Assembly: GCA_965197745.1 (NCBI GenBank)
Contig: CBDANS010000007.1
Location: 736,001 to 800,000 of the forward strand
Direction: 5' to 3'
Source: Opitutales bacterium
Lineage (GTDB): Bacteria; Verrucomicrobiota; Verrucomicrobiia; Opitutales; PNEW01
DNA: 64,000 nt
Shown here: in pieces, positions 7,612 to 64,000 of the stretch
Layout of the letters: every line of letters begins with the position of its first letter
How positions within the stretch are numbered: the stretch's first letter is position 1
Notes under the pieces: generated by a model
Told to the model about the DNA's origin: nothing
What the model saw: the letters and a program-made list of their open reading frames with translations, nothing else
Databases searched by the model: none
Position numbers and translations under genes: made by a program

Positions 7612-7795
7612 AAAATTCAAAGAATTTCAATTTTTCAGTGTTAAGTATCAGGTTTTAAGTTTTAAGCAAGTAACTGGATTTTTGATTAATGAGCAGAGTG
7701 TGAGAACAGCAAATATTCAACCTTTGACTTTCGACCTTCGACTTTCGACCTAACACCTTACACTTAACACCTTACACTTAACACCTAAAACTTGC
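7611..7795. repeat. Empty heptamer-arm element between the tolQ- and tolR-like genes
   Basis: Left GTGTTAA GTATCAG GTTTTAA GTTTTAA; right CCTAACA CCTTACA CTTAACA CCTTACA CTTAACA CCTAAAA; also a CTTCGAC-type run at ~7723-7750. Confidence 0.8.
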
Positions 7796-10873: not shown

Positions 10874-11156
10874 AGAATGACTCCTTTAAGAATTTATAAG
10901 ATATTCAGAATTGAACGAACAGATATGAATTGGTTTAAAATAAATTGCGTCAATAAAATTCATAACTAATTTTAATATTTTTTTAAATATTTGGATGGGG
11001 CGCTTTCCCTTTGTCCTTGCGATAAGCGGAGCGACCATGTTATTCAGTAGGTTGAATAGCTTGTTGCAGTTTAAGGATGTACTTTACAACTTTTACTTAT
11101 GTGTGCTGATAAATTTTCTTACTGAAACCTAAGACCTAAAACTTCACACAGAAAAT

Positions 11157-12101
11157 CTAAGGATTTTCTTTTTTTTGATTCTTTTTGAAAAAAACCACCG
11201 GCGTATCGTTAGGCTCGAGGGAGAGACCTGACAGATTTTCGACAGTTCGTTTTTTCAAAAGCGCATGACCAATCCAGGACTTGCCATCATAAGCTGCACT
11301 GCATAGTTGTCCGACGACACTTTCCTGATCATACAGATCGCAGGGAAGCGTGGGGGGTATAGGGATCTCACCGTGAATAGAGTAAATTTTACGTTGAACC
11401 TGGCCCATGGAATGTAAGCGCGCCATTACTTCCTGACCAAGGAAGCAGCCTTTGTCGAATGAGATGGTGTCAATCTCCAGGGCCCCTTCCTGGGGTAAGT
11501 CATCTGGCCCTATGTCATTCGGTATAGCGGGGATACATGATTTCAAACGTTCACAGTGAAGATCTTCATCGGAAGCCCAGGACACCGCCTCACTATCGCC
11601 GAACGCTTCAATTTGAGATTTAATGGCTTCAATTTGAGCGATAGGAAGAATGAGATCGTAATTGTCCTGCGTGGAGCGTCTGCCGTGTATAAGGTATTTA
11701 CCGGATAATTCACCAAAAGATCCAGTACTCGGCTCATTAAGTCCGATTTGATGGAGAAAAAATGCGGCATTTTTACCCCAACAGGAGATGGCAGCTACCG
11801 TTGAAGTGAGATCTTCTAACTCCACCTCATCAGCGATTATGTTCTCTTCCAATTTATCGAGAATCGAACGTGCTGGGCAAAAGTAGCTGAATAACAGGTA
11901 TCGGTTTTCGTCAGTCTGGAATATAAAACTATCGGCAATGGTCTTGCCTTTTCGAGTGAGCCAGAGTCCATAGATGACCGGCTGCGGATTTTCCCGTTGC
12001 AGATCATTGCTGAACTGACTTTGTAAAAAAAATGACGCATCCTCACCCGTAACCCTTATCCAGGCAGCTGGTTGATACTGATAGAAAAATGTGATGCTCA
12101 T
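11157..12101 (-). CDS. ygfZ: Folate-binding YgfZ/GcvT-like protein
   Basis: KGCFLGQE signature. Confidence 0.88.
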   Translation of the reverse strand: MSITFFYQYQPAAWIRVTGEDASFFLQSQFSNDLQRENPQPVIYGLWLTRKGKTIADSFIFQTDENRYLLFSYFCPARSILDKLEENIIADEVELEDLTSTVAAISCWGKNAAFFLHQIGLNEPSTGSFGELSGKYLIHGRRSTQDNYDLILPIAQIEAIKSQIEAFGDSEAVSWASDEDLHCERLKSCIPAIPNDIGPDDLPQEGALEIDTISFDKGCFLGQEVMARLHSMGQVQRKIYSIHGEIPIPPTLPCDLYDQESVVGQLCSAAYDGKSWIGHALLKKRTVENLSGLSLEPNDTPVVFFKKNQKKENP

Positions 12102-14477: not shown

Positions 14478-14725
14478 TTCACAACATCGTTAGTCAAAAA
14501 TGGAGAAAATCTAAGGATTTATTTTTTGGAGAGCCACATGGTGCCTGTCAGCCATAGCCCCGCGGTTGCCGGTTGCGGGGCGACGGTTGATTGTGGCCGA
14601 CAGGGATATTTAATACCGACGGTGTTAATCCTACTCTATCCGCGGACGCGACGAAGCGCGTCCCTCCATTAAAACGCATCACCGCATTCACGCATTTACG
14701 CGTATACCTTTTGACTAATAGACGG

Positions 14726-18871: not shown

Positions 18872-18889
18872 GAAGGGGGACACTACGGT

Positions 18890-22181: not shown

Positions 22182-22528
22182 GTCGAAAAGCGAAGCGAAC
22201 TCCGCCGTTTTAGGTGTTAAGTGTTAGGTTTAAGGCTATTCAGTCGTATCTTTAAAAGTTAATCATAATAAGCCAGTTCACCAAATTATACCATATATGT
22301 TTTATTGAATTTCCTTACCTAAAACCTAACACCTAAAACTTAACACAGAAAATCCTTGGATTTTCTCCCCCTTCCCTGTCTTCCTGTAAAAATTAATTTA
22401 TCTTTTATGTGTTTCTTGCCTGCCGGCCATAGTCCCGCAACTGCGGGACGGCGACCGGTGACTTTGGAAAATCTCACTTGGCTCGGTAGTGGCTATCCTC
22501 TTCTTCTTAGACCTTCGACTTTCGACTC
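22182..22528. repeat. Compound repeat: heptamer-arm element (22208-22365) plus a 9-mer arm with two mini-inserts and a CTTCGAC arm
   Basis: TTTTAGG TGTTAAG TGTTAGG / CCTAAAA CCTAACA CCTAAAA CTTAACA CAGAAAATCCTTGGATTTT. Confidence 0.8.
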
Positions 22529-22533
22529 GCGGT

Positions 22534-25500
22534 TCACCGAACGCCCCCTTCAAAACGTATCCTTGGATCGAGCCACATGAGAAGAAGATCACTGACCAGG
22601 GTGCCAAACACTCCAAGCATACTGAGGACCATCAGCATGGAACCCGCTAAATACATATCTTCGGTCATCAGGGCTTCCAGCATCATCGGGCCTACGGTGG
22701 GCAGGCTTAAGACCATCGCCACGATCGCTCCACCCGATACGAGCTGCGGGAATAACATGCCTATTCCCGAGATAAAGGGGTTGAGCGCGATACGCACAGG
22801 GTACTTTAAAAGTAGTTTAAACGGCCTTACGCCTTTGGCTATCGCCGTGACGACATAAGGCTTCTTCAATTCATCGAGTAAATTGCCGCGCATCACCCGG
22901 ATCATACTTGCCGTTCCCGTCACTCCCAGGACCACGACCGGCATCCAGATATGTTGCATCAGGTCAACCACCTTGCCCCGGGTCCATTCCGGTTGGGTCG
23001 CGTACTCGGGTGAAAATAATCCCGACATGGTGATACCGAAATAAACACTGCTCCAGTACATGAGTAATAACGCGAGGAGGAAGCTGGGCACACACATCCC
23101 GATAAAGCCGAGAAGGGTAAAAAAGTAATCACCGATCGAATACTGGCGCACCGCGGAATAAATACCGATGGGCAGAGCCACGGCCCAGGTAAACAGAACG
23201 GAGCCCAGTGAAATCAAAAAAGTCAGCAGGATGCGGTCGCCCACCACTTCATTTACGGGCTTTCGGTTTTGCATGGAAAAACCCATGTGCCCCTGGAGCA
23301 GTCCCTGATCTGCAGACTGAAATGAGAGAAACCAGGGCAGACCTAACCAGTGGGTGTACTGGGTGATGATCGGTTGATCGATGGGAAAGATTTCACGCAG
23401 TTGTTGGGCTTCTGTTATCGCCTTTTGATCGTTTGTTAATTCTGCCTGTAATATTTTCGAGTCTATGTAGTTTCCCGGGGGCAGTTGGATGATCGTAAAC
23501 GCGATAACGGAAATTACGAACAGGGTGGGCACCATAATGAGAAAACGCCTTCCAATATAAGGATGCTTCACGCCGACAAGAACTAATCCGACGACTGCTA
23601 TACCATAGCAGAAAAAGCGGATTAACCGGCCGAGGATTTCACCACTGTCACTTACGTGAAATATTCTTTCAGTCGAGTAGGGTGATGGCGCAATTTCCGT
23701 CACCTCTCGTTTGATTTGCGCGACGGCGCCGGGGGAATCCTTTGGGTTTTCAAAGTAGAAAGTTTCAAATCCACTGCTGGAAGGACTCTTATAAAGAGAA
23801 CCGTAGATGGCTTTGCGCGGAACATTTCTAAAATTTTTCTTAACAATCAGTACACTTGGTGGAGGGGTTGAAATATTGATATTCCATAGGTTTTCCGCCG
23901 CGATATCCTGAATTTCACTGTAAATCCTTACCTGTTCCTCGAAAGTAAGCGCGCTATAAGCGTCATCGAGCAATTCCATGGATCGCCTCAGGGGGTGATC
24001 GGGTGAGGGTTCCGTGCGACCGGGTTTTTTCGACTCCGGGTCGCCGTATAGACCGCCATCTTGGTACCAGAGAAAATAACCTGCAGCCTCAATGTGTCCC
24101 GGTGAAAAACGGTTTAATGAAACTAATGGGTGATACTCACCTGCAACTCCCCAGATATTGAAATCCAATTTGCGGGCCGGCTGTTCCGCGATGTGAAGGT
24201 TATAGGACCGCACCTTTTCAATCGAATTGATGCCGACCTTTTTCCAGTCATTTGCGACAAAAGAGGAGGGGCCTTCGCTGAAATTTGGAATCATACTTAA
24301 ATACCATGTCATGCGTGTGCCGTCTTTAAAGGTACGGAAACCCTCGGAGTCACGTCCGGTGAGCCCGATTTCGTCAAGCATTTGGTTGGCGCGTTCGGGA
24401 TCATATTCGATATAGCTGTTTTTAAGCTTCTCATGGTAAAAGGGAGATTCCCTTCCCGGTGAATTCTGTGCAGGTTCTCCATATCCGTGGTAAACCGCAT
24501 CAATAATCTGCTGGCGATTGATGGCAAGGGAGAGGGCTTGCCGAAATCGTTTATTGTTAAGCAATTCCCATTTCTTACGGGTACTTGGATCATTGGGATC
24601 TATATAGCGATCGAGATTGGGATATATTGCCCAATCGGAAGAGCCAGATTTATACCAGTGGTAGACATCGTAATTTCCAATATCACGATGTGACATAAAC
24701 AAAGTGTAATGAAAATAGTAGATATTAAAGCCCTGCATCGTTATCGAGCCATTCGATGCAGCGATAGGTACCAACTTTTCTGTTTTCACATCGACCGTAA
24801 AACGGTCGACATAGGGTAACTGGTTTCCCAGGGAGTCAACGGCCCAGTAATAGGGATTGCGCACGTAGTTCTGAGGGGGATTGGGTCTGTAGGAGCGGTA
24901 TATCCAGGGCCAGATGCGTGGATGTTCCGGGTTGTTGCTCAACTTTAAGGTAATGTATAGAGCGTCTCTCTGGGTGATTTTATTTACCCGCATCATCCCC
25001 TCGATGAGGTCACTGTCCCCTAGGGTGGGGTGATAGGGCTCCAGGTAGTGGCGGGGTGAAAAAAATTCAATGGTCGGAGCTATGCGTTCCAGCAATAACG
25101 AGTGAGAGTAGGGAAAAATTAATTTCACGGTGTGAGAATCTATTTTAATGATGTCACCCTTCTTACCTTTTAATTTCATCCATGCCGGGAATCCAATAAT
25201 CTCGTCTTTCACCTCGTGCTCCCACCAGTAGAGAATATCATCCGCGGTGAAGGGATGGCCATCGGACCATTTCATGCCCTTGCGCAGGTAAAACGTCCAC
25301 TCTCTCTTGTCAGGAGTAGCTTCCCAGCTTTTGGCTACATGAGGGACAATGGGATACCCCATCGGTGACCAGCGAACCATGCAGGACCCGGCCATCCAGG
25401 CTTCAATATGATCCAGCGTAGCGGGGCTGTTCGTTACAATATTCCAGGTCCCCCCGTAATTGCCGATGCCATCGACCCCCTCGATGACCACCGGTTCGGG

Positions 25501-26526: not shown

Positions 26527-26530
26527 AAAG

Positions 26531-26826
26531 AAAATCATTAGATTTTCTGTGTTAAGTTTTAGGTGTTAGCTGCCGTCGTATAAACTAGGGCGTACCAGGG
26601 ATTTTAAGTAGAGTTTGAATCAATCTCTCTCTTTCTATTTATAGCTTTGTCACCTAAACACGTGGCAAGCCATCTTTTCGGCGACGATTGGTGCCTTTGA
26701 AAGATCACGCTTCGCTCTGGTAGTAGCCTACCTCTTCTTTTTCTCCCCGCTTGCCACGCCATAGCCCTTAGCGACGGCAGGGCCTTCGACTCTTAACTTA
26801 AAACCTAACACCTAAAACTTAACACA
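26531..26826. repeat. Empty heptamer-arm element containing mini-inserts
   Basis: Left AAAATCATTAGATTTTCTGTGTTAAGTTTTAGGTGTTAG; right CTAACACCTAAAACTTAACACA (reverse complement). Confidence 0.85.
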
Positions 26827-26840
26827 TCCCTATTTAGACG

Positions 26841-28729
26841 CTAGTCTAAATAGGGATCGTACTCCGGCACAAACTTCCTTATACACTCCTTGATCTCGTT
26901 TCCGGGAAGATCAAGCATGCCGTTATTTTTTAATTCATTAAAAAATTCCTCTACCCCATTGCGGTTGTTCGATACATTGGCAAAGCGAAAAATGCGTGGG
27001 TGTTCGGTCTCTTCGTGCATCTCCTCTATGTGTTGATATTCTTCGAAAAGTTTTTCCCCGGGGCGAAGTCCGATATATTTGAGATCGATATCGATGCCCG
27101 GGCGGAATCCACTTAACTCGATCATTTGTTTAGCCAGGTCGACGATTTTTATCGTCTCTCCCATGTCCAAGACAAAAATTTCTCCTCCTTTTCCCTGGGT
27201 TGCAGCCTGTAGGATAAGACCCACCGATTCCGGTACCGTCATAAAATAACGTGTCACGTCGGGATGCGTTATGGTGACAGGTCCTCCTTCATCAATCTGT
27301 TTCTTAAAAATAGGAACTACGCTGTTAGACGATCCAAGGACGTTTCCGAATCGCACTGCCATGAAATGGGTCTTATTCTCCAGCTTATTTTGTTTGGTCT
27401 GGATATATATTTCCGCCATGCGTTTGCTTACTCCCATGACACTTGTTGGATTAATCGCTTTGTCCGTCGAAATTAAAATAAAGTGCTCTACAGAATACTT
27501 ACTGGCAAGATCAGCCAGCAACTCAGTTCCCAGGGTATTATTCTTAATAGCTTCACCCGGTTGCCGCTCCATCATGTGAACATGCTTATGCGCAGCGGCG
27601 TGAAAAACAATCTGCGGTTGGAAACGCTGAAACAAACTGTCCATCCGTTTTTTATCAAGAATATCAGCGACCAGGGGAAGAACGACCGAACCGTAACCTT
27701 CATCTTTCAACTGTTCTTCAATTTGAAAAAGGGTTCCTTCAGTTTTCTCTACCATGAGGAGGCGACGGGGGTTATTGAATACTACCTGTCGACATAATTC
27801 ACTGCCGATGCTACCTCCCGCTCCTGTGACCATGACTACTTTGTCCTGGATCATGTGTTGAATATTTTCGGAGTCCAGTTTGACCGGTTCCCGACCGAGC
27901 AGGTCCTCTACTTCCACCGGTCTCAATCGATTAGTGCGAACGGTCCCTGTCGTTAATTGCGCTAATGAAGGAACGATTTCTGCCTTTAGATTAGCTTGCT
28001 GTGCAGCTATGATAACTTCCTTGACTCGCCATGCTGGAGCTGAAGGCATGGCAATAATAATTTTTTCGATCCCATATTTTCTTTTTATCGCATTGAGCCT
28101 GTCGATTCCATTAATGACTTTAATTCCATGCAGATTCAGATTCCACTTTGTTTCATCGTCATCTAAAAAAACAACAGGGCGCATCCCAAGACCCCGTTTT
28201 GATAATAAGTCACTGGCGATGGTTTCACCGACATCTCCGGCTCCAACGATGGCAACATTTTCAATTTCATGGGGAGTAGCAGATCCTCCTGAAAGGTAGC
28301 GTTCACGGATAACGCGCATGGAAAGCCGGAATCCACATACGAGGATAAATGAAAAAACAAAATCCGCGAGAATGACACTTCGGGGAGGTGAATAGCTGCC
28401 GCTACTGAAAAACCAGATACAAATGAGAATTGCGCTGGATACGGCGAGTGCGGAAAAATACGATACAGATTCGGTAATCTGAAATAGCTGAGCATCCCTC
28501 CATATTGACCGAAGGGCCAAAAAATTATCAGCTTTAATGGTACTATTATAAGCAAATTAGCAATGCGAGCTGTCTGATGGTGCAGGGGTACCTGGAAATC
28601 AAAACGCAGTTCATAGCCGATAAACAGGTTGACCGTAAATATTATCATGTAGGCAAAAAAAAAGATGAGTGCCTTGAATGGCACTAATACCTTTAAAAAA
28701 GAAAATATCGCTGAACTCCTATTAGGCAT
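26841..28729 (-). pseudogene. CapD/PglF-type nucleotide-sugar dehydratase, split by a 1-nt frameshift at ~28454-28458
   Basis: TM N-terminus in ORF 28163..28729; TGAGGSIGSEL, HAAAHKHV, STDKA and RPGEKL in ORF 26841..28520. One extra T joins them. Confidence 0.85.
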
Positions 28730-34801: not shown

Positions 34802-36152
34802 TGATCGGACCCCGTATTTCGTATCAAATTTTAAGTGAGAGAACTACCGGGTGTTAATGGTTTTAGGATTGATGTATATGAGAGATCTTGGCGCAGTGAG
34901 GGCGTAGCCCGAACGCGGCCAAGAGCGGAAAGGAATGTGACAAACTCTTGTGGGCTTTTAAAGCCTAATCGACTGTGGGGATGTTCATTGTTATAGGTCT
35001 GACGCCATTGTTCTATTAGCACTTGCGCTTCAGCCACGCTGAGCAACACTTCACGGTTCAAACACTCATCGCGTAAGCGGTTGTGAAACGACTCGATGAA
35101 ACCGTTTTGCCAGGGACTGCCCGGATCGATATATATCGCCTTGATCTTTTTGTCGGACAACCACTGCTGCACCTGATGAGCAATGAATGGCTTCGCATGT
35201 CGTCGCTTCGCTCCTCGGAACACTGCCGTTGTCACTGCGGATATAGCTAGGAACTCCCTCTTCATCGATGGTTTCGCTGAGTACCGAGAGAACATCGGTT
35301 GAGGTGAGCTGTCGAGCTACCCGGATGCGTAAACATTTACGCGTATATGTCTTCGCTTCGCTTGAGTGTCGTCGCTTTCAGCTCCTCGGTACATCGATCA
35401 AGGTCATCATCTTTAGCATACCGCCATTGTCTGTACGATCATGGACAAAGTCCCAGGACCAGACGTGATTGCGACCGGTTGCTTTAGTAGGGAGCCCAGT
35501 AGAGATCCCCTGACGGTGTCTACGCTTTTTCGGTGGCTTTACCTGTAAGCCCGAAGAACGTCGCACTGCCTGTACAAATTTCCTGCTTGCCGCCCAACCT
35601 TCTTTCACCAGCAAGGCACGAATGCGCCGGTAACCGTAACGGGGATGTTCCCAGGACAAGGTCAAAATCCGCTCGGCCAATTGCTGAGCCTTCTTACTGG
35701 CCTGCTTGGGTCGGTAGCTGTACGTTGACCAACTGAGGCTGAGATAAGCACAAGCCCTCTAAAACGAGCACAGCCCCTTCTCAGCCGCATCTTTTACTGC
35801 TCGCTTCTTCTGCTTTGGGCTCACCATTTTTTTGAGAGCGTTTCCTCCAACACCCGAAGCTTGAGCATTTGATCAGCGAGCATCTTCTTCAGCTCCGTAT
35901 TCTCCTTTTCCAGCTCTTTAAATCGCTTCGCATCAGCCAGCTCCAAGTTGCCATACTTTTTGCCCCAGCGATAGAAGGTCTGTTCACTTAGGTTGTTGCC
36001 GTGGCAGACTTCCTGCACGGTTTTGCCCGTATCGGGCTGCCGCAGTATTGCTATGATCTGTTCTGTTGTATATCTTTTTCTTTTCATTGAGGTTATCTGT
36101 TTATCCCGATAACCTCTCTCTGTTAATGATACCATTTTTGGGGGTCACTCCA
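34802..36152 (-). mobile_element. Degenerate IS3-family insertion sequence
   Basis: Imperfect IRs TGATCGGACCCC..GTATCA / TGGAGTGACCCC..GTATCA. OrfA MKRKRYTTEQII..KKW with an A7 run. OrfB with WSWDF, SDNG and PWQNGFIESF, broken by a TAG and two short inserts. Confidence 0.92.
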
Positions 36153-38137: not shown

Positions 38138-38972
38138 AGGAGTCTAAAGTCGAATGTCTAATGTCGAAAGTCGGAAAACGAAGAATTTTTACAGGAAGAT
38201 CCAGCCGTCGCCAAGGCTATGGCCTGGCAGGCGGGAAGAACGGGAAGAAAATAATAGCCACATTTCAGGAAGAGAATAAACCACGAATGGACGCGAATTA
38301 GCGCGGATTACCACGGATATTTTATATAGAGAAGAGTTAATTAGCCACCAACCGTCGTCCCGCGGTGGCGGGACTATGGTCGGCAAAGCAAGATGCACTA
38401 CCAGAGCACAGCGAGATTTTCTAATGACACAAGATACCTTCAGGTGAAAGTTAGTGCTTAATCGCAAAAGCTCAGCAGTAGCTGAGCTTCGGCTGTTCCT
38501 TACCGTTTTTTTAATTTTGATTTAAAAAACCGCGTAAAGGATTATCCGTATCAGTTCCGCTCGCGTGCGCGTGCGGGATGACTTTGCGATGAAGCATCGT
38601 ATTTCACCTTTTCTTAACTTCATGTATTTAAATCCGCGACATCTGCGTAATCCGCGTCTCCGCGACATCCGCGTAATCTGCGGTCAGATATTTCCGTCTT
38701 TCCCGCTTGCCACGCCATAGCTCACTAGAGCGACGGTGGGATCTTCCTGTAAAATCCCTCTCTTTTTTTGTGTCTCTTGCCTGCCGGTCATAGTCACGGC
38801 GTCAGTTGTTCATATCCGCGAAAGTATAAAAAAGGAATAATGATGTGTTATAAAGTGGAATCTCGGACGCAATCGGCCGTCGTCCTTACAAATACAGGAC
38901 TATGGCCGACAGGCACCATGCGTCCCTCCAGAAAAAGGAATATCGACTTTTGACATTAGACCTTCGACTTGA
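38138..38972. repeat. Multi-layer nested repeat element
   Basis: Heptamer arms outside, two kinds of 9-mer arms inside, central structured core. Confidence 0.85.
38439..38610. other. ~175-nt four-way-junction element, copy 1
   Basis: Near-identical to 39988-40162 and 42623-42797. Confidence 0.8.
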
Positions 38973-42107: not shown

Positions 42108-42622
42108 CTATTACCGCTTCCTCTCTTACGCACAAAAAACAATAGTATTAACAGTTTATTGTGTAACCTTATGATCTCTATTAATATACCTACATATTGC
42201 AGTTTTTACCACTTCGAATTACGCCGGCCTCCGCCTCGACAGATATAGATCGTAACATTCTTTACCGAGCGATTGGGTCAGTTTTTGAGCTGAAGGACCG
42301 TCAGCCACGGGTAGGTGGAATATCATTTTTCGGGGGAGTGCATATGAGGAGTCAAAGGTCGAAATCTAGAATACAGGAATATTTTTTACAGGAAGAGCGG
42401 AAAGAATAGCCACATTTCAGGAAGAGAATTAACCACTAAAGGACACTAATTAATACAGATATCTAATTTTTTAACCACGAATGGACACGAATTTACACGG
42501 ATATTTTATATAGAGAAGAGTTAATTAGCCACCAACCGTCGTCCCGCGGTGGTGGGACTATGGTCGGCAAAGCAAGATGCACTACCAGAGCACAGCGAGA
42601 TTTTCTAATGACACAAGATAAC

Positions 42623-42797
42623 TTCAGGTGAAAGTTGGTGCTTAATCGCAAAAGCTCAGCAGTAGCTGAGCTTCGGCTGTTCCTTACCGTTTTTTTAAAT
42701 TTTGATTTAAAAAACCGCGTACAGGAATATCCGTATCAGTTCCGCTCGCGTGTGCGTGCGGGATGACTTTGCGATGAAGCAACGTATTTCATCTGAA
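42623..42797. other. ~175-nt four-way-junction element, copy 3
   Basis: As copies 1 and 2; flanking homology extends ~42404-42850. Confidence 0.8.
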
Positions 42798-43025
42798 TTA
42801 AACCCAAAATTAATATCCGCGATATTCGCGTCATCCGCGGTAAGATCTTGCTGTTTATTTTTGTGCCTCTTGCCTGCCGGTCATAGTCCCGCCACTGGGG
42901 GACGACGGTTGGTGCCTTTGAAAGATGTCGTCCCGGTGTCGCGGGACTCGGTAGTGGCTATCTTAAAAAAACCACAGCAGTGAATGTTACTGAAATAAAA
43001 GTTAAAGAATGGGCTATTTTAACTT

Positions 43026-43271: not shown

Positions 43272-43460
43272 AAAATCAGTAGATTTTTAGTGTTATGTTT
43301 TAGGTGTTAGGTATTAGGAAAGAGCAAATATTCAAAAAGTCAAAATGTAGCTTCGCAGTTTTAGCTGTAAGATTGAATCATAACAAAAATGTGAAATTCA
43401 AATTTTTCTTTAACTTAACACTTAAAACCTAACACTTAATACTGAAAATCGTTAGATTTT
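43272..43460. repeat. Empty heptamer-arm element with AAAATC-N4-GATTTT palindromes at both ends
   Basis: Palindromes at 43272-43287 and 43445-43460; inverted heptamer runs inside. Confidence 0.88.
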
Positions 43461-44581
43461 CATTCTTTTGACATAGAAATTTCTAATTTAGAAATTTCTA
43501 ATTCCTTCGTCATTCCTTCAAACCATTCTATGACCTCTGTATGTAAGGGTATTCCCTTAACGCGCCGCTCTTGCTCTTCTTCATGTTCCAGCATGCCGGG
43601 GTAAAGGACGCGTTCTTGGCCCGGTGCCGGTTTTGTTTCCCTGATCATCTTGAGCATGCGATCCATGTTATCTTTAAAGATATCGAGATCGGTGAATGCT
43701 TCGATGTCGTAGGCGACGAAATGATGTTTATGCGTCATACCCGGTTCACCCGGGGATGCGAGCATGCTGGGAATGGAACCTGCCAATATTGACCCGAGGA
43801 TTTCTGTTACCATCGCGAGCCCATAACCTTTATGGGAACCCTGCTCTCGCGTGCCGCCCAAGGGGAGTATATGTACAGGGATGCCATCCTTGAATTCAGG
43901 TACGCGAACGGCTTCCATTATGGGAACACCTTCGGCATCGGCAATCCAGCCTGGGTCCAGTTTTGACCCTATTCTGCGGGCGAGCTCAATTTTATTTCCG
44001 GCGACTGAGCAAGTCGCGGCGTCATATAGAAAAGGGGCTTCATTGCGTGTAGGTGCCGCGAGAGCAATGGGATTTGTGCCAAGCAGACCTTTTGAAGCAA
44101 AAGTTGGCACTACTTGTGTACCTGCAGCAGTCGTTACCAGACCTACCATATTGTTTTGAACCGCTTGCATGGCATGATGGCCGATGGCACCCGAATGGCC
44201 GCTGTTATAAACGGACACAGCACCGATGCCAACCTGCTTAGCTTTGTCGATCGCGATTTGCATCACATGACGACCAATAATGATGACTAAACCTCTATCC
44301 GCATCAATGGTCGCCGTTCCAGGCTTTTCACGCATAATCTTCCAATTGGCCTGCGCGTTGATATCTTTATTTTTATACTGCGTATGGTAAGCTCTCAGCA
44401 TATTAGATACACCGTGACTTTCCACTCCACGCAGGTCAGAAGTTACGAGCGTGTCTGCCGCGATTGCGGCATCTTCTGGAGTCTCACCCATCTTTTCAAA
44501 AAACTCCGTCACCGTTCGGCGTAATGATTCCTCCGGAACAATGACCTGTTCTTTTATCGGGACTTTGAAACGTTCTAGCAT
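43460..44581 (-). CDS. Ldh_2 family (malate/lactate/ureidoglycolate-type) oxidoreductase
   Basis: DLRGVESHG, GTNPIA, HKGYGL, YPG..E. Confidence 0.92.
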   Translation of the reverse strand: MLERFKVPIKEQVIVPEESLRRTVTEFFEKMGETPEDAAIAADTLVTSDLRGVESHGVSNMLRAYHTQYKNKDINAQANWKIMREKPGTATIDADRGLVIIIGRHVMQIAIDKAKQVGIGAVSVYNSGHSGAIGHHAMQAVQNNMVGLVTTAAGTQVVPTFASKGLLGTNPIALAAPTRNEAPFLYDAATCSVAGNKIELARRIGSKLDPGWIADAEGVPIMEAVRVPEFKDGIPVHILPLGGTREQGSHKGYGLAMVTEILGSILAGSIPSMLASPGEPGMTHKHHFVAYDIEAFTDLDIFKDNMDRMLKMIRETKPAPGQERVLYPGMLEHEEEQERRVKGIPLHTEVIEWFEGMTKELEISKLEISMSKE

Positions 44582-44757
44582 AACTCAACAATGTTGAGTT
44601 ATGCGGTCGAAGGTCAAATGTCAAAGGTCAAAAGTGAAAAAATCTAAAGATTTTTTGTTTTAGGTGTAAGATGTTAAATTTTAAGTAAGATTTTTCATCA
44701 AAGCATAATTAGTAAATGTTCCGACCTTCGACTTTCGACTCTTTGACCTTGTTATAC

Positions 44758-45717
44758 CTAGGTCAAAGATTTCAGTAATCGGTCCTCTTCCGTAAAATCC
44801 CAGGGTTCTTTGTCATAGCCCTGTTCCAGCCACCAATTGTAAGTCATTTCCAGACCCTCGCGAATGTTATAACGGGGTTCCCATTCCAGGTCGCGACGCG
44901 CTTTTTCGTTGCTGTAAACAGAGCTGACTCCCCATCCGAAAGGGAAGATTTCAACCTCCTGCTCTTCATAGTGAGCGGGATCGACGTGAATCACTTCCAC
45001 TTCCTTACTCATTATATCAGTCAGTGTTTGAATGTAAGCGTTAACCGTAATCATCTCATTTGAAGCGATGGTGTAGATCTGTCCCTCCGCCTGTTTTCGA
45101 TCGGGAACAGAGGCAAATGCAGCGGCCAGATCATCGACGTGGATAAAGTGAAGAAGTCGTTGACCGTCTCCCGGAATAATAATTTTACGACCGTGAGTGA
45201 GTCGGGCAAAAAACGTGTGCTCGCGTTGTTTCAGGTTATTGTGCGGCCCGTAAACATAGACCAACCTCAGAGAGGTTGTCGGCAGACCGCGCTCTTCGTA
45301 AACCTTTAAGAGATAATCTTCACAGGCAATCTTATCCCTGGCGTAGTCACTGGCTTCCGGTCTTCGGTCTAGAGTTGAATCTTCGAAGATCGGTCTGATT
45401 TCGGAGGGGGCATAGACGGAAGTTGAGCTGCAGAAAACATAAGTACCTATCTTCCCATCGAGAACATTGATGACAGTTTCAACCACGTCAGGTGTATAAC
45501 CCGAAATGTCATAGACGACATCAAAGGTCTTGCCATTCAATACCTCTGCGACCTGTTTCCTGTCATTGCGGTCGGCGATGAGACGATTGACCTTGCTGGG
45601 TATTTGCGCCTCGCTCTGGCCCCGATTCAAGATCGTTACCTCATGTCCCTGGTTAATTAAATAATCAACAAGGTGAAGCCCGACAAATTGTGTCCCCCCT
45701 AAGACTAGTGAATCCAT
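44758..45717 (-). CDS. NAD-dependent epimerase/dehydratase family protein
   Basis: LVLGGTQFVG, YARDK, HVDDLA; start set at ATG 45717. Confidence 0.9.
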   Translation of the reverse strand: MDSLVLGGTQFVGLHLVDYLINQGHEVTILNRGQSEAQIPSKVNRLIADRNDRKQVAEVLNGKTFDVVYDISGYTPDVVETVINVLDGKIGTYVFCSSTSVYAPSEIRPIFEDSTLDRRPEASDYARDKIACEDYLLKVYEERGLPTTSLRLVYVYGPHNNLKQREHTFFARLTHGRKIIIPGDGQRLLHFIHVDDLAAAFASVPDRKQAEGQIYTIASNEMITVNAYIQTLTDIMSKEVEVIHVDPAHYEEQEVEIFPFGWGVSSVYSNEKARRDLEWEPRYNIREGLEMTYNWWLEQGYDKEPWDFTEEDRLLKSLT

Positions 45718-45726
45718 GGATTCACT

Positions 45727-46285
45727 AGTCAAAAAGTCAAAAGGTCAAAAAGTCAAAAAATAAAAATCCTTGGATTTTTAGTGTTATGTTTTAGGTTAGA
45801 GATTGAATTAATGCATGAAGTTTTCCTGATATCATTTTTGTTTCAGTAATTAATGCATTAGCTTCTTTAGATGGTATAAGGCCAATATTTTTAGCGATAA
45901 ATAATTGAGTTCGAACTTCAGCAGCTGAACCTTTAGCATAACCAAGAAATAATTTAAACTCATGTATCGAGTTTCTCTCAGCTCCCTCTGCAATATTTGA
46001 AGGTATCGAAACAGCTGCTCGCGATATTTGATCTCTAAATCCGTAATTACGTGAGTCTTTCAATTCGGAATATATACTTATAACTAAAGCACACGCTCTT
46101 TGCCAAACATCCAGTTCTTCGAATGATTGATAGGCCATGACTTAAGAGTTAAAGTGTATTTCTACGCGATTATCGGAAGAGATAACTAGATGATATAAAT
46201 CGACAGTTAATACCTGACGATTAATAGTGAAAAATAATATTATTTCTTCGACTTAACACCTAACACCTAAAACTTAACACAGCAA
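45727..46285. mobile_element. Putative element: inverted heptamer arms carrying a four-helix-bundle gene
   Basis: Left arm palindrome plus AGTGTTATGTTTTAGGT; right arm ACTTAAC ACCTAAC ACCTAAA ACTTAAC ACAG. Mobility is inferred only. Confidence 0.6.
45791..46138 (-). CDS. Four-helix-bundle protein (23S rRNA IVS protein-like, TIGR02436-type)
   Basis: FEELDVWQ, DQISRAAVSIPSNIAEG, FLGYAKGSAAEVRTQL. Confidence 0.95.
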   Translation of the reverse strand: MAYQSFEELDVWQRACALVISIYSELKDSRNYGFRDQISRAAVSIPSNIAEGAERNSIHEFKLFLGYAKGSAAEVRTQLFIAKNIGLIPSKEANALITETKMISGKLHALIQSLT

Positions 46286-46288
46286 TAT

Positions 46289-47872
46289 ATGTCTGAAATG
46301 TTAGACACATCTTCTCGAGGTCTTCACATTGTGGATTGGTTGTGCATTGCCCTCTACGCGGCTGTGGTTTTGGGAGTCGGGTGGATTTATTCGCGCAGGC
46401 ATTCGGACACGGGGAGTTATTTTGTTGGCAGCGGGAAGATGAATTCCTTTCTCATCGGTATTTCCATATTAGCAACGCTCTTAAGTTCCGCCTCTTTTTT
46501 AATGATTCCCGGTGAAATGATTAAAAATGGGCCGGTCATATTATGCTATCTCTTCGCGATACCTATCGCCTATGTCATCGTCGGTTACGTCTTGATCCCC
46601 GCCCTCATGCGTTACCGTGTGATCAGCGCTTACGAGATATTGGAAAAGAAGATGGGGGTAAAAATACGCCTGCTCGGTGCCAGCCTGTTTATCATGCTCA
46701 GGCTTACCTGGATGTCAGTCATTGTTTACTTCGCGGCAGAAGCGACAGTGGTAATCATCGGACTCGACCGATCAATGGTTCCCTGGGTTGTTCTGGTAAT
46801 TGGGATTGTCTCCGTAACTTATACCACCATGGGGGGATTACAGGCTGTAGTTATAACCGATCTTCTTCAATTCTGCATCCTATTTGGCGGTGCGATATTG
46901 ACCCTAACCATTATCAGTTTTCGTCTCGACGGTCTTCACTGGATTCCTACGGAGTGGTCACCTAATTGGGACGTACAACCATTCTTCAGCTTCGATCCAA
47001 CGGTGCGCGTGACGGTGGTTGGATCGATAATCTCATTTTTAATCTGGTTAATATGTATGGGAGGATCTGATCAGACGGTGATCCAAAGATATATGTGTAC
47101 CGAGGACGCCGCTACTGCTCGACGAGCCTACTTTCGAAATTCCCTCACAAATATGATAACCATTCCATTAATTGCTCTCGTGGGATTTGGGGTATTGGGA
47201 TTTTATATGCAGTACCAGGAGTATATTCCTGAAGGGGAGACCATTCAGTCCTATGCTGACAGACTCTTTCCACTATTTATATCAGAACATTTACCGATCG
47301 GTGTAGCCGGCCTCGTCGTTTCAGCATTATTCGCAGCCGGAATGTCGAGCATCGACTCAGGAATAAATTCAATAACAGCAGTCACGATGACAGACTTTTT
47401 AGATCGCTTTGGTCTTAAATCAAAAAGCGAGCGACAGCATTTGAGAATGGCCAGGTTCATAGCCATTGGCATCGGTGTCTTTGTCATGCTTGTGAGTATT
47501 CAAATGCATCGAGTGCCCGGCAACTTCGTAGAAATACCCCAGAAAACAATTAATCTTTTTACGGTGCCCATGTTCTGCCTGTTTTTCTTTGCTTTGTTTG
47601 TTCCGTTCGCCACTCCATTTGGCGTTGCCCTGGGTGCTCTCTATGGATGGGTGGCTGCGCTCCTCGTCGCCTACTGGGACATTTTCACTGGCCTCGACAG
47701 ACTAAGTTTCCAATTGATCATGTTTACGGCCCTCGTAGTAGACCTCTCTATCGGATGTCTATTCAGTCTCATTCCCATTAAGCATAACCCCCCCCCTGTG
47801 ATCGCCGTCTGGACGGTTATGGCACTTTCCCCGCTAATCGCGGGGATACTCACGCTCTTTTTCAGAGCGTGA
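46289..47872 (+). CDS. Sodium:solute symporter (SSS family)
   Basis: YTTMGGLQAVVITDLLQ, DQTVIQRY, AAGMSSIDSGINS. Confidence 0.93.
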   Translation: MSEMLDTSSRGLHIVDWLCIALYAAVVLGVGWIYSRRHSDTGSYFVGSGKMNSFLIGISILATLLSSASFLMIPGEMIKNGPVILCYLFAIPIAYVIVGYVLIPALMRYRVISAYEILEKKMGVKIRLLGASLFIMLRLTWMSVIVYFAAEATVVIIGLDRSMVPWVVLVIGIVSVTYTTMGGLQAVVITDLLQFCILFGGAILTLTIISFRLDGLHWIPTEWSPNWDVQPFFSFDPTVRVTVVGSIISFLIWLICMGGSDQTVIQRYMCTEDAATARRAYFRNSLTNMITIPLIALVGFGVLGFYMQYQEYIPEGETIQSYADRLFPLFISEHLPIGVAGLVVSALFAAGMSSIDSGINSITAVTMTDFLDRFGLKSKSERQHLRMARFIAIGIGVFVMLVSIQMHRVPGNFVEIPQKTINLFTVPMFCLFFFALFVPFATPFGVALGALYGWVAALLVAYWDIFTGLDRLSFQLIMFTALVVDLSIGCLFSLIPIKHNPPPVIAVWTVMALSPLIAGILTLFFRA

Positions 47873-48093
47873 GTATTGTCAAAAAGTCAAGAAGATATGC
47901 GGTAAGGCGTAAATGCGATAAAGCGTGAATGCGGATTAATACCTGAGACATAATGCAGGATGCGAGGAGACCCTAGAGATTACCCCTTATTCGCATAAAC
48001 ACATATACGCGTATGAGGATGACGAGCTACGCTCTCGGTACGCACATACCCTTCGACATTTGACTTTCGACTTTCGACTCCTTTAATAAATCC

Positions 48094-48972
48094 ATGATTA
48101 AAAGTAAAAACGGCTATCCAACTGCTGAAGAACTGATAGAAAAAGTGCGTGAGGTTGGCTATTGTCTGATTGAAGACATAATTCCTGAAGATAAGATTGA
48201 GCCGATCAAAAAAGAAATTTCTGACGCGGCTCACGCTAATTGCAGTGATTATGCGTCCGATAATATTACCCATATGTCAGGGACTATTAATCATACCCAG
48301 ATTTTCGCGGAATATGTCGCACACCCTCGTATCATGGCGTTGGTGGACACATTTTTTGGCCCCTATGCGCGTGTCTCCTCGACCACAACGACGATTAATG
48401 AACCGGGGAACAAGCGAGGTATGTGGCACTCCGATTGGCCGTTTAACCAGAGAAACGCGGGGCACATCCCGGTTCCCTATCCCGACATCATGCTTCACAT
48501 CACTTCTATCTGGATGCTGTCGGCATTCAGTAAAGAGAATGGAGGGACCTTAATTCGACCCGGTAGCCATAAACTCGATTATAACCCGAGCGTCGATTAT
48601 CCGGTAAATAAAGCGAAAACAGATGATAAGGAAGCGATGGCAAAAGGGTGGACGGAGGTTGCCTGTGATCCATTAGATGATGAAATAAATGCTACGGGAC
48701 CGGCGGGCAGTGTGCTCTTCTTTGACAGTCGCTTATGGCATGCCACCGCGCCCAACACTTCCAGTGATCCAAGGGTAGCGTTGATCGTGCGTTATGCTCC
48801 CTGGTGGATAAATCTTAAATCCTGGCGGCCCGGTTCGATTGATCGGAAAATAATTTCTGAAGAACCCGGCATATTTGAAAACGTGCTCGCGCCACTTCCC
48901 ATCGATGTCTATAATCGGCTACCCGAAGTCACCAAACCCCTTTTCCGGCATTGGGTAGAGGAAAACGCGTAG
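48094..48972 (+). CDS. PhyH-family Fe(II)/2OG dioxygenase
   Basis: WHSD, PGSH, LWH..APN....R. Confidence 0.9.
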   Translation: MIKSKNGYPTAEELIEKVREVGYCLIEDIIPEDKIEPIKKEISDAAHANCSDYASDNITHMSGTINHTQIFAEYVAHPRIMALVDTFFGPYARVSSTTTTINEPGNKRGMWHSDWPFNQRNAGHIPVPYPDIMLHITSIWMLSAFSKENGGTLIRPGSHKLDYNPSVDYPVNKAKTDDKEAMAKGWTEVACDPLDDEINATGPAGSVLFFDSRLWHATAPNTSSDPRVALIVRYAPWWINLKSWRPGSIDRKIISEEPGIFENVLAPLPIDVYNRLPEVTKPLFRHWVEENA

Positions 48973-49201
48973 CGTTTTCGTCGAAAGTCGAAGGTCAAAG
49001 GTCGAAAGCGAAAATCGTTATTCTGGAGGGACGCGCTCTGTCGCGTCCGCTTAAAAATCAGGTGTATTTATTTTTCGATATTATAAATGATGATTATAGC
49101 CACAACGGCGTGTGGCCCTCCAATTTATTTTCTTCGCTAAAAATTGTATCAGCATCATTCTACCTTTGACATTAGACCTTAGACTTTCGACAAAAGAACC
49201 C

Positions 49202-50194
49202 ATGGGTTCTTTTCAAGATAAGCCGATTGGACGCAGTGGATTGAAGATGAGCGCGATTGCGCTGGGGGCGGGAACTTACGGACGAGAGATCGACGAAGAA
49301 GCATCCTGGCGGTTACTCGACTATGCGACAGAAAAAGGAATTACATTTCACGATAACGCGGAAATGTATGGTGGGGGTAACACCTATGAAAAACGTAAAG
49401 CGGATTACGGTACCACCGATGTGAGGGAGGCATCGACTGAAATGTACTCGGGCGAGAAAATTCTCTCTCGATGGATGAAAAATCGGGGTTGCCGGGATGA
49501 AATTATCCTCTGCACAAAAGTCAGCACCGGGAACAGCGCGGAAAATATTAAAAAACAGATGGCGGCCAGCCTCGAGCGTCTGGAAGTCGACTGTGTGGAC
49601 GTTTACATGTTGCATTCCCCCGATGACAACGTGCCTATAGAAGAAACAATGGATGCCCTCAACGAGGAAGTTGAGGCCGGACATACCAGGGTTCTTGGGT
49701 GCAGTAATTTTTCGGGCGCGCAATTGCGTGATGCGCTCGCGGTCAGCGCGAAAAAGGGGTACGCCCGTTTTGAAATCTCTGAACCCCGCTATAATCTCGG
49801 CGATCGAGAAGCCGAAACAGATCATTTTCCCATTTGCCGAGAGGAAGAGATAACGGTTATGCCCTACAGCCCGCTGGGGGCGGGATTTCTCACCGGGAAG
49901 TACAGCCCCGACCGTTCAAAGTTTCCCAAGGGTGCGCGCTTTGACCTCTCACCCGGTCATGCCGACATTTACTTTAACGATCATAATTTTCGGGTGGTCG
50001 AACACCTGCGTAAAAAAGCCGAGGAGATGGGACTTACGATGGTGCGTCTCGCCATGGCCTGGGCCATGACGCATCCCGACGTCACCGCAACTCTCATAGG
50101 CGCCCGAACAACCGATCACATCGACAACGCCCTCCTCGCCGCCGAAATGGGACTGGATCCAGGATTACGTGAAGAAATGAACGAATTTTCATAA
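49202..50194 (+). CDS. Aldo/keto reductase
   Basis: DNAEMYG, GCSNF, PYSPLGAGFLTGKY. Start set at ATG 49202 because upstream codons are repeat arm. Confidence 0.92.
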   Translation: MGSFQDKPIGRSGLKMSAIALGAGTYGREIDEEASWRLLDYATEKGITFHDNAEMYGGGNTYEKRKADYGTTDVREASTEMYSGEKILSRWMKNRGCRDEIILCTKVSTGNSAENIKKQMAASLERLEVDCVDVYMLHSPDDNVPIEETMDALNEEVEAGHTRVLGCSNFSGAQLRDALAVSAKKGYARFEISEPRYNLGDREAETDHFPICREEEITVMPYSPLGAGFLTGKYSPDRSKFPKGARFDLSPGHADIYFNDHNFRVVEHLRKKAEEMGLTMVRLAMAWAMTHPDVTATLIGARTTDHIDNALLAAEMGLDPGLREEMNEFS

Positions 50195-50376
50195 AAATTC
50201 GTTGTGTTAGGTTTTAGGTGTTAAGTGTTAGGTTGAAGGGTGTGTACATGGGCCTCCATTTATTTATTAATCAAACTATTCCCGCGTTCCCGCATTTACG
50301 CGTTTTCGCATCATCGCATATCCCCATCTCCCATTACTTTTGACTTTTTGACCTTTTGACCTTTTGACTATGACCC

Positions 50377-51501
50377 ATGGGGTCATATTCCGATAAGCTG
50401 ATATTGATTATCGATGGTCACTTGGATATGGGGTTTAATGCGCTTTTTAATCGGCGTGATCTTACCCAACCGGTTCAGGAATTACGTGCTCGCGAAGACT
50501 CGCTTGAGAACCCGTTAGGTCCCTATGAAAACGATCCTGGAACGGTTACGGTTTCACTCCCGGAAATGCGGAGGGGTCATATTGGTATTATGCTGTCAAC
50601 TATTATGGCGCGTGTCCAAGTGCCCTGGCCCGGAAGACCCAGGACCCACAACGCGGTGCGCACTCAAGCCACAGCCTATGCGCGCGGGCAATCCCATCTC
50701 GCTTATTACCAGGCTTTGGAAAGGGAAGGAGAGACAACCTGGATTAAAACACTCGAGGACTTGAATTCGTGTGTTGCGGCCTGGGAAAACCCCACACCGG
50801 AAACTCCTGTGGGTCTTATCCTCTCCATGGAAAGCGCCGATCCCATCCTTGGTCCCGACCAGGTAGGGGAGTGGTGGGATGCCGGATTGCGTTCTGTCGG
50901 CATTACTCATTTCGGGGCCAATTCTTATGGACACGGAACCGGTACGCCGGGGGGACTATACCCCACAGCATACCCGCTGATGGATGCATTTGCAGATACA
51001 AAAATGATTATTGATCTCACCCATGCCGCTGATATCACATTCTGGCAGATCCTAGATTATTGGGATGGACCGATACATGCCAGCCATTGCAACTGTCGCG
51101 CACTCGTACCCGGTCAACGCCATCTCAGTGACGAAATGATAAAGGCGGTCTGCGAACGCGATGGCGTAATTGGCGCTGTATTTGCCGAGCCCATGCTCAA
51201 TCCTCAGTGGGATTGGGATGATCCGAGAACACATTATACTAATGCGTCGCGATCGATGAAGGCGGTAATTGAACATGTCGATCACATCTGTCAGCTCGTC
51301 GGTAACACGGATCACGTAGCTATTGGCACTGATCTCGATGGCGGATTTGGACGTGAACTGGCCCCAACCGACATGAATACTATCTACGACCTGCAAATAT
51401 TTTTAAATCTGCTGCGTGAAAGGGGATACAGCGAAGAGGACGTTACAAAAATTGCTCATGGTAATTTGCTACGCCTCTTCCGCCATGCATGGAGTAAATA
51501 A
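50377..51501 (+). CDS. Membrane dipeptidase (peptidase M19), paralog 1
   Basis: IDGHLD, MESAD, IDLTH, ASHCN, IGTDLDGG. Confidence 0.92.
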   Translation: MGSYSDKLILIIDGHLDMGFNALFNRRDLTQPVQELRAREDSLENPLGPYENDPGTVTVSLPEMRRGHIGIMLSTIMARVQVPWPGRPRTHNAVRTQATAYARGQSHLAYYQALEREGETTWIKTLEDLNSCVAAWENPTPETPVGLILSMESADPILGPDQVGEWWDAGLRSVGITHFGANSYGHGTGTPGGLYPTAYPLMDAFADTKMIIDLTHAADITFWQILDYWDGPIHASHCNCRALVPGQRHLSDEMIKAVCERDGVIGAVFAEPMLNPQWDWDDPRTHYTNASRSMKAVIEHVDHICQLVGNTDHVAIGTDLDGGFGRELAPTDMNTIYDLQIFLNLLRERGYSEEDVTKIAHGNLLRLFRHAWSK

Positions 51502-60836: not shown

Positions 60837-60984
60837 AAGGGATGAGTCAAAAGTCGAAAGTCAATTGGACGCAACGGAGTGCGTCCCTCCAGAAAATAAA
60901 TGGAGAGATGAAGACACGGGCGATGACGAAGATTGTCGATTTACATTATAGAATATAGCTTCTTCTTCGTCCTTCCAGTTATTT

Positions 60985-61183
60985 CACCCCGGAGGGGTGA
61001 CACAATCACAGCTCGCAGCGTAAGCTTTGGGAATAATTTACGAATAATTTAAGCCCCAGCGGGGCGACACAAACCGGCTTATCTGTCAATTTGTATCGCC
61101 CCTCCGGGGCTCTGAAAATGGGTTGCACATCTCAAACCCATTGCTTACGCAATGGGCTAATTATGTTACGCCCCTCCGGGGCT
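60985..61183. repeat. ~200-bp multi-hairpin REP/MITE-like doublet, copy 3
   Basis: Aligns with 3161-3359 and 6270-6470. Confidence 0.85.
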
Positions 61184-61210
61184 TCGACGCTAAGATAAAC
61201 GAACTTAAAA

Positions 61211-61305
61211 GCGGACGCGACGACGCGCGTCCCTCCAGAAAATGAATGACATTGCGTGCTCTCCTATTCTGTTCTTTTCCGGAGGGCCACGCGTTGTCGT
61301 GGCCG
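61211..61305. repeat. GGAG-footed REP doublet
   Basis: GCGGACGCG..CGCGTCCCTCCA and GGAGGGCCACG..CGTGGCCG. Confidence 0.8.
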
Positions 61306-62998: not shown

Positions 62999-63850
62999 AT
63001 GGCTCTAATATACACCGATTCAAAACATGATGTTCTCGATGGTGAAAAAAATGCATCATGTGATCAGCAAAACCCCAGTACCCCACATCAATTGAATAAG
63101 GGTAGCCGACGTAAAAGGTTTTCTTTAAAGAAGAAACTCCTTTTTTCTGTCATTGTCGCTGGGTTATTTTTCGGAAGTCTTGAGTTTGTCTGTTTTCTTA
63201 CCAAGTCTCTCTATATTAATTTTCGCAAACTTGGTTTACCCGCATATGCGGTTAATTACATGCCAAGTACGATTAAATACACGCTTCGCGAAAACGTGCT
63301 TTCTAAACCGGACAAAGAACTTTTATTTCGAGTAGAGCAAAACCCATCAGGTTTATCTATGCAGGGTTATTCTGGAATTAATGCACATGGCTTTCGCGGT
63401 AATATTTATGATCCGAGTCTTATAAATAAAGATGAGACAAAAATTATGATTCTTGGTGACTCCTGTGCCTTCGGGTGGGGTATACGGGATTATGGACTTA
63501 CATTTCAGTCGATATTGGAAAAACGGTTAAATCAACGGCAATGTGACTATAAAGTTTATAACTTTTCACAACCCGGATACAGTTCCAGTCAGGGAAGAAT
63601 AATATTTGAAAAATGGTTCTCTAGAGTCAGTCCCGATCTTCTTATAATTTATTTAGGGTGGAATGATATCTGGGAAACACCGCTATTAACGGATAGCCAG
63701 AATCTTAATCTATTTAAATACACAAAAAAAACCCCCTTTAAGTGGATTCAAAAATCTCACACTTACCTGGCATTTGAATCTCTCTATCAATCGTTAATAA
63801 AACCAAGTGGTGAGTATGCAGATATCAAAAATAAAAAATTAAGAGTCTGA
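62999..63850 (+). pseudogene. SGNH/GDSL hydrolase, 3'-truncated by IS3
   Basis: LGDS, PGYSS and GWND present, DxxH block absent; the stop TGA is the first 3 nt of the IS end. Confidence 0.8.
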
Positions 63851-64000
63851 TTGGACCCCGTTTTTCGTACCAATTATTAAGTGAGAGAGTTCCCGGGTAT
63901 TAATGGTTTTAGGATTGATGTATATGAGAGATCTTGGCGAAGTGAGGGCGTAGCCCGAACGCGGCCAAGATCTGAAAGGAATGTGACAAACTCTTGTGGG
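63848..64000 (-). mobile_element. End of a second IS3 copy, continues past window end
   Basis: Aligns with 34802-34955 in the same orientation. Confidence 0.9.

Follow-up and report, generated by a model that had tools for sequence, protein, structure and literature searches.

A PF05635 four-helix-bundle gene carried between inverted heptamer arrays in an Opitutales genome, and its place among described repeat-bounded elements

PF05635 is a large protein family with solved structures and an unexplained role, and bacterial genomes carry dispersed heptamer arrays of unexplained origin; these two puzzles meet at the locus described here. Members of the family have been noted in rRNA insertions, at CRISPR loci and in DGR neighborhoods (10.1101/2024.02.27.582315, PMC3936711, PMC10053308). 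The ORF-carrying 23S rRNA IVS of Coxiella and Leptospira encode such a protein between terminal inverted repeats, and in Coxiella heptamers lie just ahead of the S23p ORF (PMC4990558). Avd, the DGR accessory protein, has the same fold and forms a nucleic-acid-binding ring with equivalent pockets (10.1101/2023.10.23.563531; PMC10053308); each of the five Avd protomers in that complex touches an RNA stem-loop, with flipped-out bases held in the inter-protomer crevices (10.1101/2023.10.23.563531). REPIN-RAYT systems consist of two conserved inverted arms around a variable spacer, present in many extragenic copies, together with a single-copy gene that is flanked by its own repeat class and whose protein clades match the repeat classes (10.1101/2021.07.10.451892). 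MITEs are short gene-less elements with inverted ends that occur beside a gene-carrying version. Finally, the heptamer arrays of Xanthomonas and Nostoc (PMC4692102) and of the Beggiatoaceae (PMC4679880) are intergenic, 2–6 units long, partly arranged in convergent pairs and patchily distributed across phyla, with no known mechanism. The available text of both papers names no partner gene, although a supplementary table row lists GGGAATC in four units overlapping the XCC0516 start, the gene of the crystallized pentamer (PMC4692102), and a mobile heptamer-binding protein has been proposed with, in the text available, no candidate from the PF05635 family (PMC4679880).

The cassette analyzed here lies in a 64,000-nucleotide stretch of an Opitutales genome (the window; source genome G000, 4.45 Mb, 92% complete) and resembles each of these systems in part. 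It shares the protein family, the terminal inverted repeats and the heptamers with the rRNA IVS, but stands between protein genes in a genome that also holds dozens of gene-less pairs and several gene/unit pairs; it probably represents the ORF-bearing IVS in free form. Its layout is most like that of REPIN-RAYT. However, its arms are tandem 6–8-mers rather than short palindromes, with outer hairpins of varying sequence; its gene encodes a four-helix bundle and not an HUH/Y1 transposase, and homologues cross phyla and are also present on plasmids and viral contigs. Unlike DGR Avd, with which it shares a fold and, by homology, a ring, the protein is encoded in a genome without an RT. Unlike MITEs, the elements have no common interior and no transposase, and unlike the published heptamer arrays, each unit here has a matching PF05635 clade. 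The cassette thus falls outside the definitions of rRNA IVS, REPIN-RAYT, MITE and DGR, while its gene belongs to the PF05635 family. A literature search, with subscription papers and bioRxiv supplements outside its reach, returned no paper describing the link between gene and arrays.

The focal gene and the repeats of the window

The focal gene (45791–46138, minus strand), recognized as an ORF with a profile match, encodes a four-helix-bundle protein of 115 aa. It matches PF05635 (E 7.6e-32, 110 bits against a curated cut-off of 33.8) and TIGR02436 (E 2.2e-31, 108 against 24), and these models and others of the TIGR02436 type are the sole profile matches of the ORF. The family motif RxxxSxxxNxxE (PMC3936711) is found at residues 40–51, and no catalytic motif is visible in an alignment read by eye. 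Four long helices are predicted with a pLDDT of 95.8, and the model resembles 2GSC (Xcc0516; TM 0.91), Avd (4DWL; TM 0.77) and also 2RLD (BT_0352), with amino acid identities of 39% to the Xcc0516 pentamer and 13% to Avd. Homology to 2GSC suggests that the protein is a homopentamer; a four-copy complex prediction gave 0.37 versus 0.42. The nearest named homologue is from an Opitutales genome. The gene has a GC content of 34.5%, compared with 47–49% in neighboring genes, and is under purifying selection, with dN/dS values of 0.15 and 0.08 in orthologue comparisons at 75–80% nucleotide identity. It lies outside rRNA, between an epimerase gene and a sodium:solute symporter (SSS) gene. Contigs in the DNA data of two studies run across the cassette (X3, 45730–49185; X4, 45730–47168), so it is not an assembly artifact.

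As the initial annotation of this DNA had proposed, the gene is bracketed by inverted heptamer arms, here of the type GT[G/T]TTA[A/G], and its stop codon is part of one of them. The left arm, downstream of the gene (45781–45801, plus), comprises two good units and one degenerate unit, too degenerate for the three-unit array filter used below, and contains the TAA at 45791–45793. A 9-bp hairpin (45761–45780) is flush with its outer edge. The right arm, upstream of the gene (46253–46280, minus), contains four inverted heptamers, ends 8 nt from the SSS start codon and has no clear hairpin. Between the start codon and the right arm is an AT-rich spacer (46139–46252) in which promoter matches do not exceed chance, and a promoter and terminator scan was likewise at chance level. 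The locus as originally noted starts at 45727, but positions 45727–45759 (plus) form an array of 8-mers, GTCAAAA[A/G/T], from a second family that is cognate to another PF05635 clade, and lie outside the focal arm. A perfect 28-bp palindrome (45703–45730), one half of which is the epimerase coding start, marks the outer edge of this array; with a short second copy at 47878–47893 (plus), in direct order, the 8-mer array brackets the cassette and the SSS gene.

Arms of the focal type recur through the window. A 24-mer was correctly reported as an exact repeat, with two copies in the window and in the genome (43282 and 45773). Gene-less inverted pairs lie at 7631–7791, enclosing a GTCGAAA-type array; at 22207–22366, with a hairpin at the right outer end; at 26529–26857, where the pair itself spans 26529–26825 and 8-bp and 14-bp hairpins are flush at the outer ends; and at 43272–43462, with hairpins at both outer ends. 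Single arms with terminal hairpins are found at 11122–11169 (minus), at 44639–44684 (plus; arm 44657–44684), nested within a GTCGAAA-type pair, and at 50180–50238 (plus; arm 50204–50238), where the outer hairpin copies the last codons and the stop of the upstream aldo-keto reductase-like gene. The pairs and single arms of the initial annotation are present, although the single arm at 1893–1940 (minus, with a terminal hairpin) is a degenerate one, mixed with heptamers of another type. Their description as empty copies of the cassette does not hold: only the arms are shared, the interiors are unrelated, and the pairs are not internally deleted copies.

The window is rich in other repeats. Palindromes beside GTCGAAA-type and 8-mer arms cover the start codons of four neighboring genes (45703–45730, 49192–49213, 50369–50387 and 44579–44605), so the AUG would be buried in a stem; the halves of the palindrome at 49192 differ in step between G000 and its relative G002. 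Further palindromic REP-like and 9-mer families, often stacked on heptamer arms, occur at 3228–3359, 6272–6470, 14642–14673, 38294–38682, 42478–42920 and 60865–61242, and two segment duplications are 80–92% identical (18886–20317 with 22530–23961; 34802–34954 with 63848–64000).

Repeat population, movement and junctions

Genome-wide, 68 GT[G/T]TTA[A/G] arrays were identified in G000 at a minimum of three units and at most one mismatch, against 0 in two local shuffles, and 81 at two mismatches, against 0 in one shuffle; the arrays are thus not due to chance. Four units is the commonest length (49/81), and a rule of one unit per subunit of a pentamer was rejected, as the modal length is not five. 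The unit varies G/T and A/G at two fixed positions, its remaining adenines being fixed, and the four variants are in near-equal use. Identical units are adjacent in only 8 of 147 cases, versus 37 expected, and agreement at the variable positions, over 60 units, is 38% and 32% for paired arms versus 46% and 42% between pairs. Because neighboring units differ and paired arms agree no better than others, what is conserved is the period and the five fixed positions, and not perfect tandem or inverted copies; the units look to be maintained as motifs.

Gene-less pairs closer than 1 kb are all convergent (20, with 0 divergent). Their interiors span 10–228 nt, seven pairs having a spacer of only 10–11 nt, and when compared with the cassette and its orthologues 19/20 score no higher than the best of 30 shuffles, the remaining one exceeding it by 1 point. 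The interiors are thus unrelated to the cassette, and a MITE-type derivation of the pairs by internal deletion was rejected. Approximately half of the focal-type arrays are unpaired, and many sit within larger composite repeats. About 20 focal-type arms belong to composites whose outer hairpin recurs and whose inner palindrome is GC-rich (for example C6:113797, C7:494703 and C7:2069057). Eight same-family pairs in G000 are more than 250 bp apart; four of them surround a PF05635 locus, and a fifth contains the focal block. Arrays of all families are concentrated in a few 100-kb stretches, of which the densest includes the window, and nearly all are outside long ORFs. Outer edges fall within 25 nt of a long-ORF boundary for 19/44 focal-type and 32/56 GTCGAAA-type or 8-mer arrays, and inner edges for 0. 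The arm-to-stop offsets are fixed at −1, −8, −15 or −22 in 23/42 cases, which is not independent evidence, since any ORF running into an array gives these values.

Orthologues of the focal gene occupy three unrelated sites in G000 and its relatives G001 and G002. The G002 cassette is located within an 8-mer pair, between genes read from their sequence as peptidase-like and fabF-like; the G001 cassette stands in place of ~156 nt of a different PF05635 gene, within the gap orthologous to the empty pair at 43272–43462 of G000. These three sites in three relatives bear out the proposal that gene and arms change place as one unit, and the cassette is very likely mobile. The predicted empty epimerase–SSS junction was not found among 60 relatives, of which four have any DNA match and none has the adjacent pair, because in the two close relatives the epimerase adjoins a dioxygenase-like gene and both cassette and SSS are absent there. 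A joint of 45756 to 46251 was rejected as an empty site, because one of its sides consists of 26 letters and undetermined bases fill the interval. Orthologous gaps are often occupied by different repeat families in G000, G001 and G002. Cassette neighbors at 31 of the 46 loci are ordinary operon genes, queA–tgt seven times, and in agreement with the initial annotation no transposase or RT is among the 62 neighbor proteins of these 31 cassettes. A PF00078 search found no RT in G000, which is 92% complete, and the single Y1_Tnp match in G000 is on another contig, unlinked to the cassette. Plasmid records (25) and viral contigs (32) also carry homologues, and many of the viral ones have arms of their own.

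Other PF05635 cassettes of G000 have settings of their own. One with TTTCGAT arms is located between 25-bp direct repeats of the tRNA-Ser(CGA) 3' end (C7:619795–620356) and resembles a tiny integrase-type island; another TTTCGAT-family arm abuts tRNA-Ser(GCT) at C7:491730. A cassette with GAATTAT arms lies between genes read as atpG and atpD (C6:1083943–1084251).

The outer junctions of the focal-type arrays carry a second recurrent feature. At sites with unique flanks, a hairpin of at least 8 bp ends at the outer edge in 14/50 cases in G000, 7/24 in G001 and 9/23 in G002, the G001 and G002 sites being drawn 20 each from the first places listed and orthologous sites not being independent. Inner-end controls gave 0, 1 and 0, respectively, and positions shifted by 15 nt gave 0. 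Some outer hairpins recur, and unique ones copy host coding sequence, examples being 50180 and, in the 8-mer family, 45703; when orthologous sites are compared across genomes, the two halves change in concert. The flanks contain inverted and not direct copies, with no direct target duplication seen, and no exact empty site was found in a close strain. Such junctions are compatible with fold-back priming during insertion and also with a later correction by template switching. Elsewhere outer hairpins are scarce (3/119 in other phyla, one N run dropped; 0/11 in the Desulfobacterales genome G142), and the idea that they are general to all repeat families was rejected, with 8/74 at 7 bp or more for the GTCGAAA-type and 8-mer families and none in five others.

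Six loci contain a cassette inside the BREX-1 gene pglX, at one site in L276/L277, L278, L282, L305 and L306 and at a second in L359. There the pglX frame stays open through the overlapped cassette gene for 120–140 codons, and the nested proteins are 56–80% identical. The corresponding frame is open in 3/179 other copies, all with at least 54% GC, and in 3/80 metagenome relatives, all three in pglX; in L295, a viral-contig homologue, the corresponding alternative frame is stop-free too. To judge from the reading frames, this arrangement fits translation of an uncut, unspliced message. Within the same limits of access as above, the literature search returned no description of nesting in pglX.

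Association between gene clade and repeat unit

G000 contains 12 PF05635 loci, two of them frameshifted and one truncated. Arms judged by eye are clearly inverted at nine and weak at three, while an automatic inverted score of at least 20 was reached at only 5/12 and missed the focal locus by picking the 8-mer array. Besides the focal unit, the units are GTCGAAA-type, GTGAACA, GATGCAG, GAATTAT, GGTTCAG, TTTCGAT, an 8-mer and a hexamer; the GGTTCAG, TTTCGAT and hexamer units each occur at two related genes. Within this genome, then, paralogues of one clade have a common unit and different clades have different units. Most units also form gene-less arrays above the shuffle level, the GAATTAT type having just one array under the filter. 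The initial reading, partly supported overall, saw one gene-and-repeat element where the genome holds several such pairs, each matched to a unit of its own.

The same association extends to homologues in GTDB. In the expected orientation, the focal unit flanks 46/77 scorable closest homologues (both sides in 36), against 0/117 other PF05635 loci from the same order and 9/280 control windows; L008 and L126 were excluded as duplicates, and L016 and L164 for short flanks. Many of the 31/77 that miss the strict unit test have a variant unit. Arms are thus strongly enriched around homologues, and the gene was not found syntenic and arm-free in relatives, so neither outcome that would have contradicted the initial annotation was seen. 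Among 197 loci, an inverted match across the gene is found in 131 and a direct match in 22, and the repeat period is 7 in 136, 8 in 27, 6 in 16 and 9 in 3. On a quick tree, which leaves 70/185 forks open and omits 9 short proteins, the focal clade (79 rows, SH-aLRT 97) spans nine named phyla and contains every focal-unit locus, and the hexamer and 8-mer groups stand apart from it. Ten changes of unit label were counted on this tree and are left out of the argument. Fourfold-degenerate sites are 28% identical between phyla (1805/6374), which is chance level. With silent sites saturated, the unit must have been kept by selection or renewed, and the association of unit and clade is very probably under selection. 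As the homologues were picked by likeness to the query and kin share unit labels, the data establish the association and not its cause; given the physical linkage of gene and arms, part of it is accounted for by common descent alone. That each relative has its own repeat suggests a partnership of protein and repeat, which could explain a common kind of bacterial repeat.

Arrays also occur where the matching gene does not. Among 111 Desulfobacterales genomes (the order of G061), with a close homologue defined as E<=1e-22, the array is present in 33, comprising 6/8 with a close homologue and 27/103 without. Fifteen genomes are array-rich, with at least 10 perfect three-unit matches; 12 have no close homologue, and one of the three that do carries another unit. 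All five array-rich genomes inspected, four of them fragmented, have PF05635 genes, none of the focal clade, and the 16 of these copies that were compared have other units or none. G142, a single 8.0-Mb contig, contains 996 perfect three-unit matches and just two PF05635 genes, both with other units; its arrays (L222–L226) reach ~19 units, and several begin at a stop codon or a contig-wide gene boundary. The gene is therefore not needed to keep the arrays, which persist without it and may expand without it. The earlier suggestion that the protein acts on the repeats is weakened by these repeat-rich genomes that lack the matching gene.

Proposed mechanism and alternatives

The observations can be read as a REPIN-like repeat population whose cognate factor is an Avd-like binding ring and not a transposase, a proposal with about an even chance of being correct. 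In a population of inverted short-period repeat elements, built like REPINs and operating without a transposase, the gene with its two arms would be the member that carries a gene. The protein would form an Avd-like ring, as its identity and fold match to the Xcc0516 pentamer suggest, and could recognize its own unit on ssDNA or RNA, with one unit per inter-subunit crevice, through the five fixed positions and irrespective of the two variable ones. Such recognition may be what ties each protein clade to one unit; judged from sequence, direct binding of protein to repeat is rather likely. Arms land in short intergenic gaps, in other elements and occasionally in genes, and other families replace them there. 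Host or unlinked enzymes would do the cutting and joining, and a single-strand end may prime on itself before joining, to which the fold-back copies of neighboring DNA, frequent at the junctions in this family of genomes, point. The arrays would outlast the gene. That the protein is needed for the spread of gene-less arms is less likely than not.

An element acting at the RNA level, although unlikely, would account for several of these features. The arms would pair in the transcript and RNase III would excise the cassette as in 23S rRNA IVS, so that insertions in operons would do no harm or would aid mRNA processing, with the gene a passenger or an RNA chaperone. In the predicted minus-strand fold the arms do pair (z = −2.4, 1/100 shuffles as good), albeit with mismatches at the variable positions; RNase III cuts at the first repeat of the Coxiella IVS, whose heptamers precede a PF05635-family gene (PMC4990558); polarity is fixed, as the exclusively convergent pairs attest; and close homologues are mostly within co-directional operons (queA–tgt, cysD–cysN, wzm–wzt). 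However, complementarity at the variable positions is no higher in paired than in unrelated arms, the pglX frame is open through the cassette at six loci and two sites, and about half of the arrays have no partner with which to pair.

Two further readings are each improbable. The ring could be a domesticated regulator that binds arrays at gene ends and starts and tunes translation or RNA stability, its own arms serving autoregulation and mobility being incidental. Purifying selection on the gene and the closeness of outer, never inner, edges to long-ORF boundaries are consistent with this, and a heptamer-binding regulator has been proposed for the TAACTGA repeats of Beggiatoaceae (PMC4679880). 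The edge effect is, however, also expected from elements that fill short gaps, and different families at orthologous gaps in close relatives, the clustering of arrays in few 100-kb stretches and the array-rich genomes without the gene argue against regulation. Alternatively, the arrays could spread by themselves through slippage, recombination or repair, with the gene a captured hitch-hiker that has no specificity for the arms. G142 and 11 other array-rich genomes without a close homologue, the long uniform G142 arrays that resemble slippage products and the arbitrary pair interiors favor such spread, whereas distinct clades keep distinct units and periods across phyla despite saturated silent sites, adjacent units avoid identity, which is the opposite of fresh slippage, and PF05635 loci or the focal block lie within five of the eight wide same-family pairs.

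The ring-based proposal can be extended to a more speculative one. PF05635 rings may serve as specificity subunits in a widespread system by which short-period arrays are written or moved without a transposase, each ring reading one 6–8-nt unit, recruiting a host polymerase or nuclease and joining arms through fold-back ends; this is possible but unlikely. About eight protein/unit pairs are present in one genome. If the specificity-subunit reading is true, it would account for the excess of heptamers in bacteria, make the ORF-bearing rRNA IVS one landing site among others and provide an origin for the DGR Avd ring. If the rings are specific, they would be natural readers of short repeats, and the links to CRISPR and DGR that have been claimed from gene neighbors would need to be re-examined.
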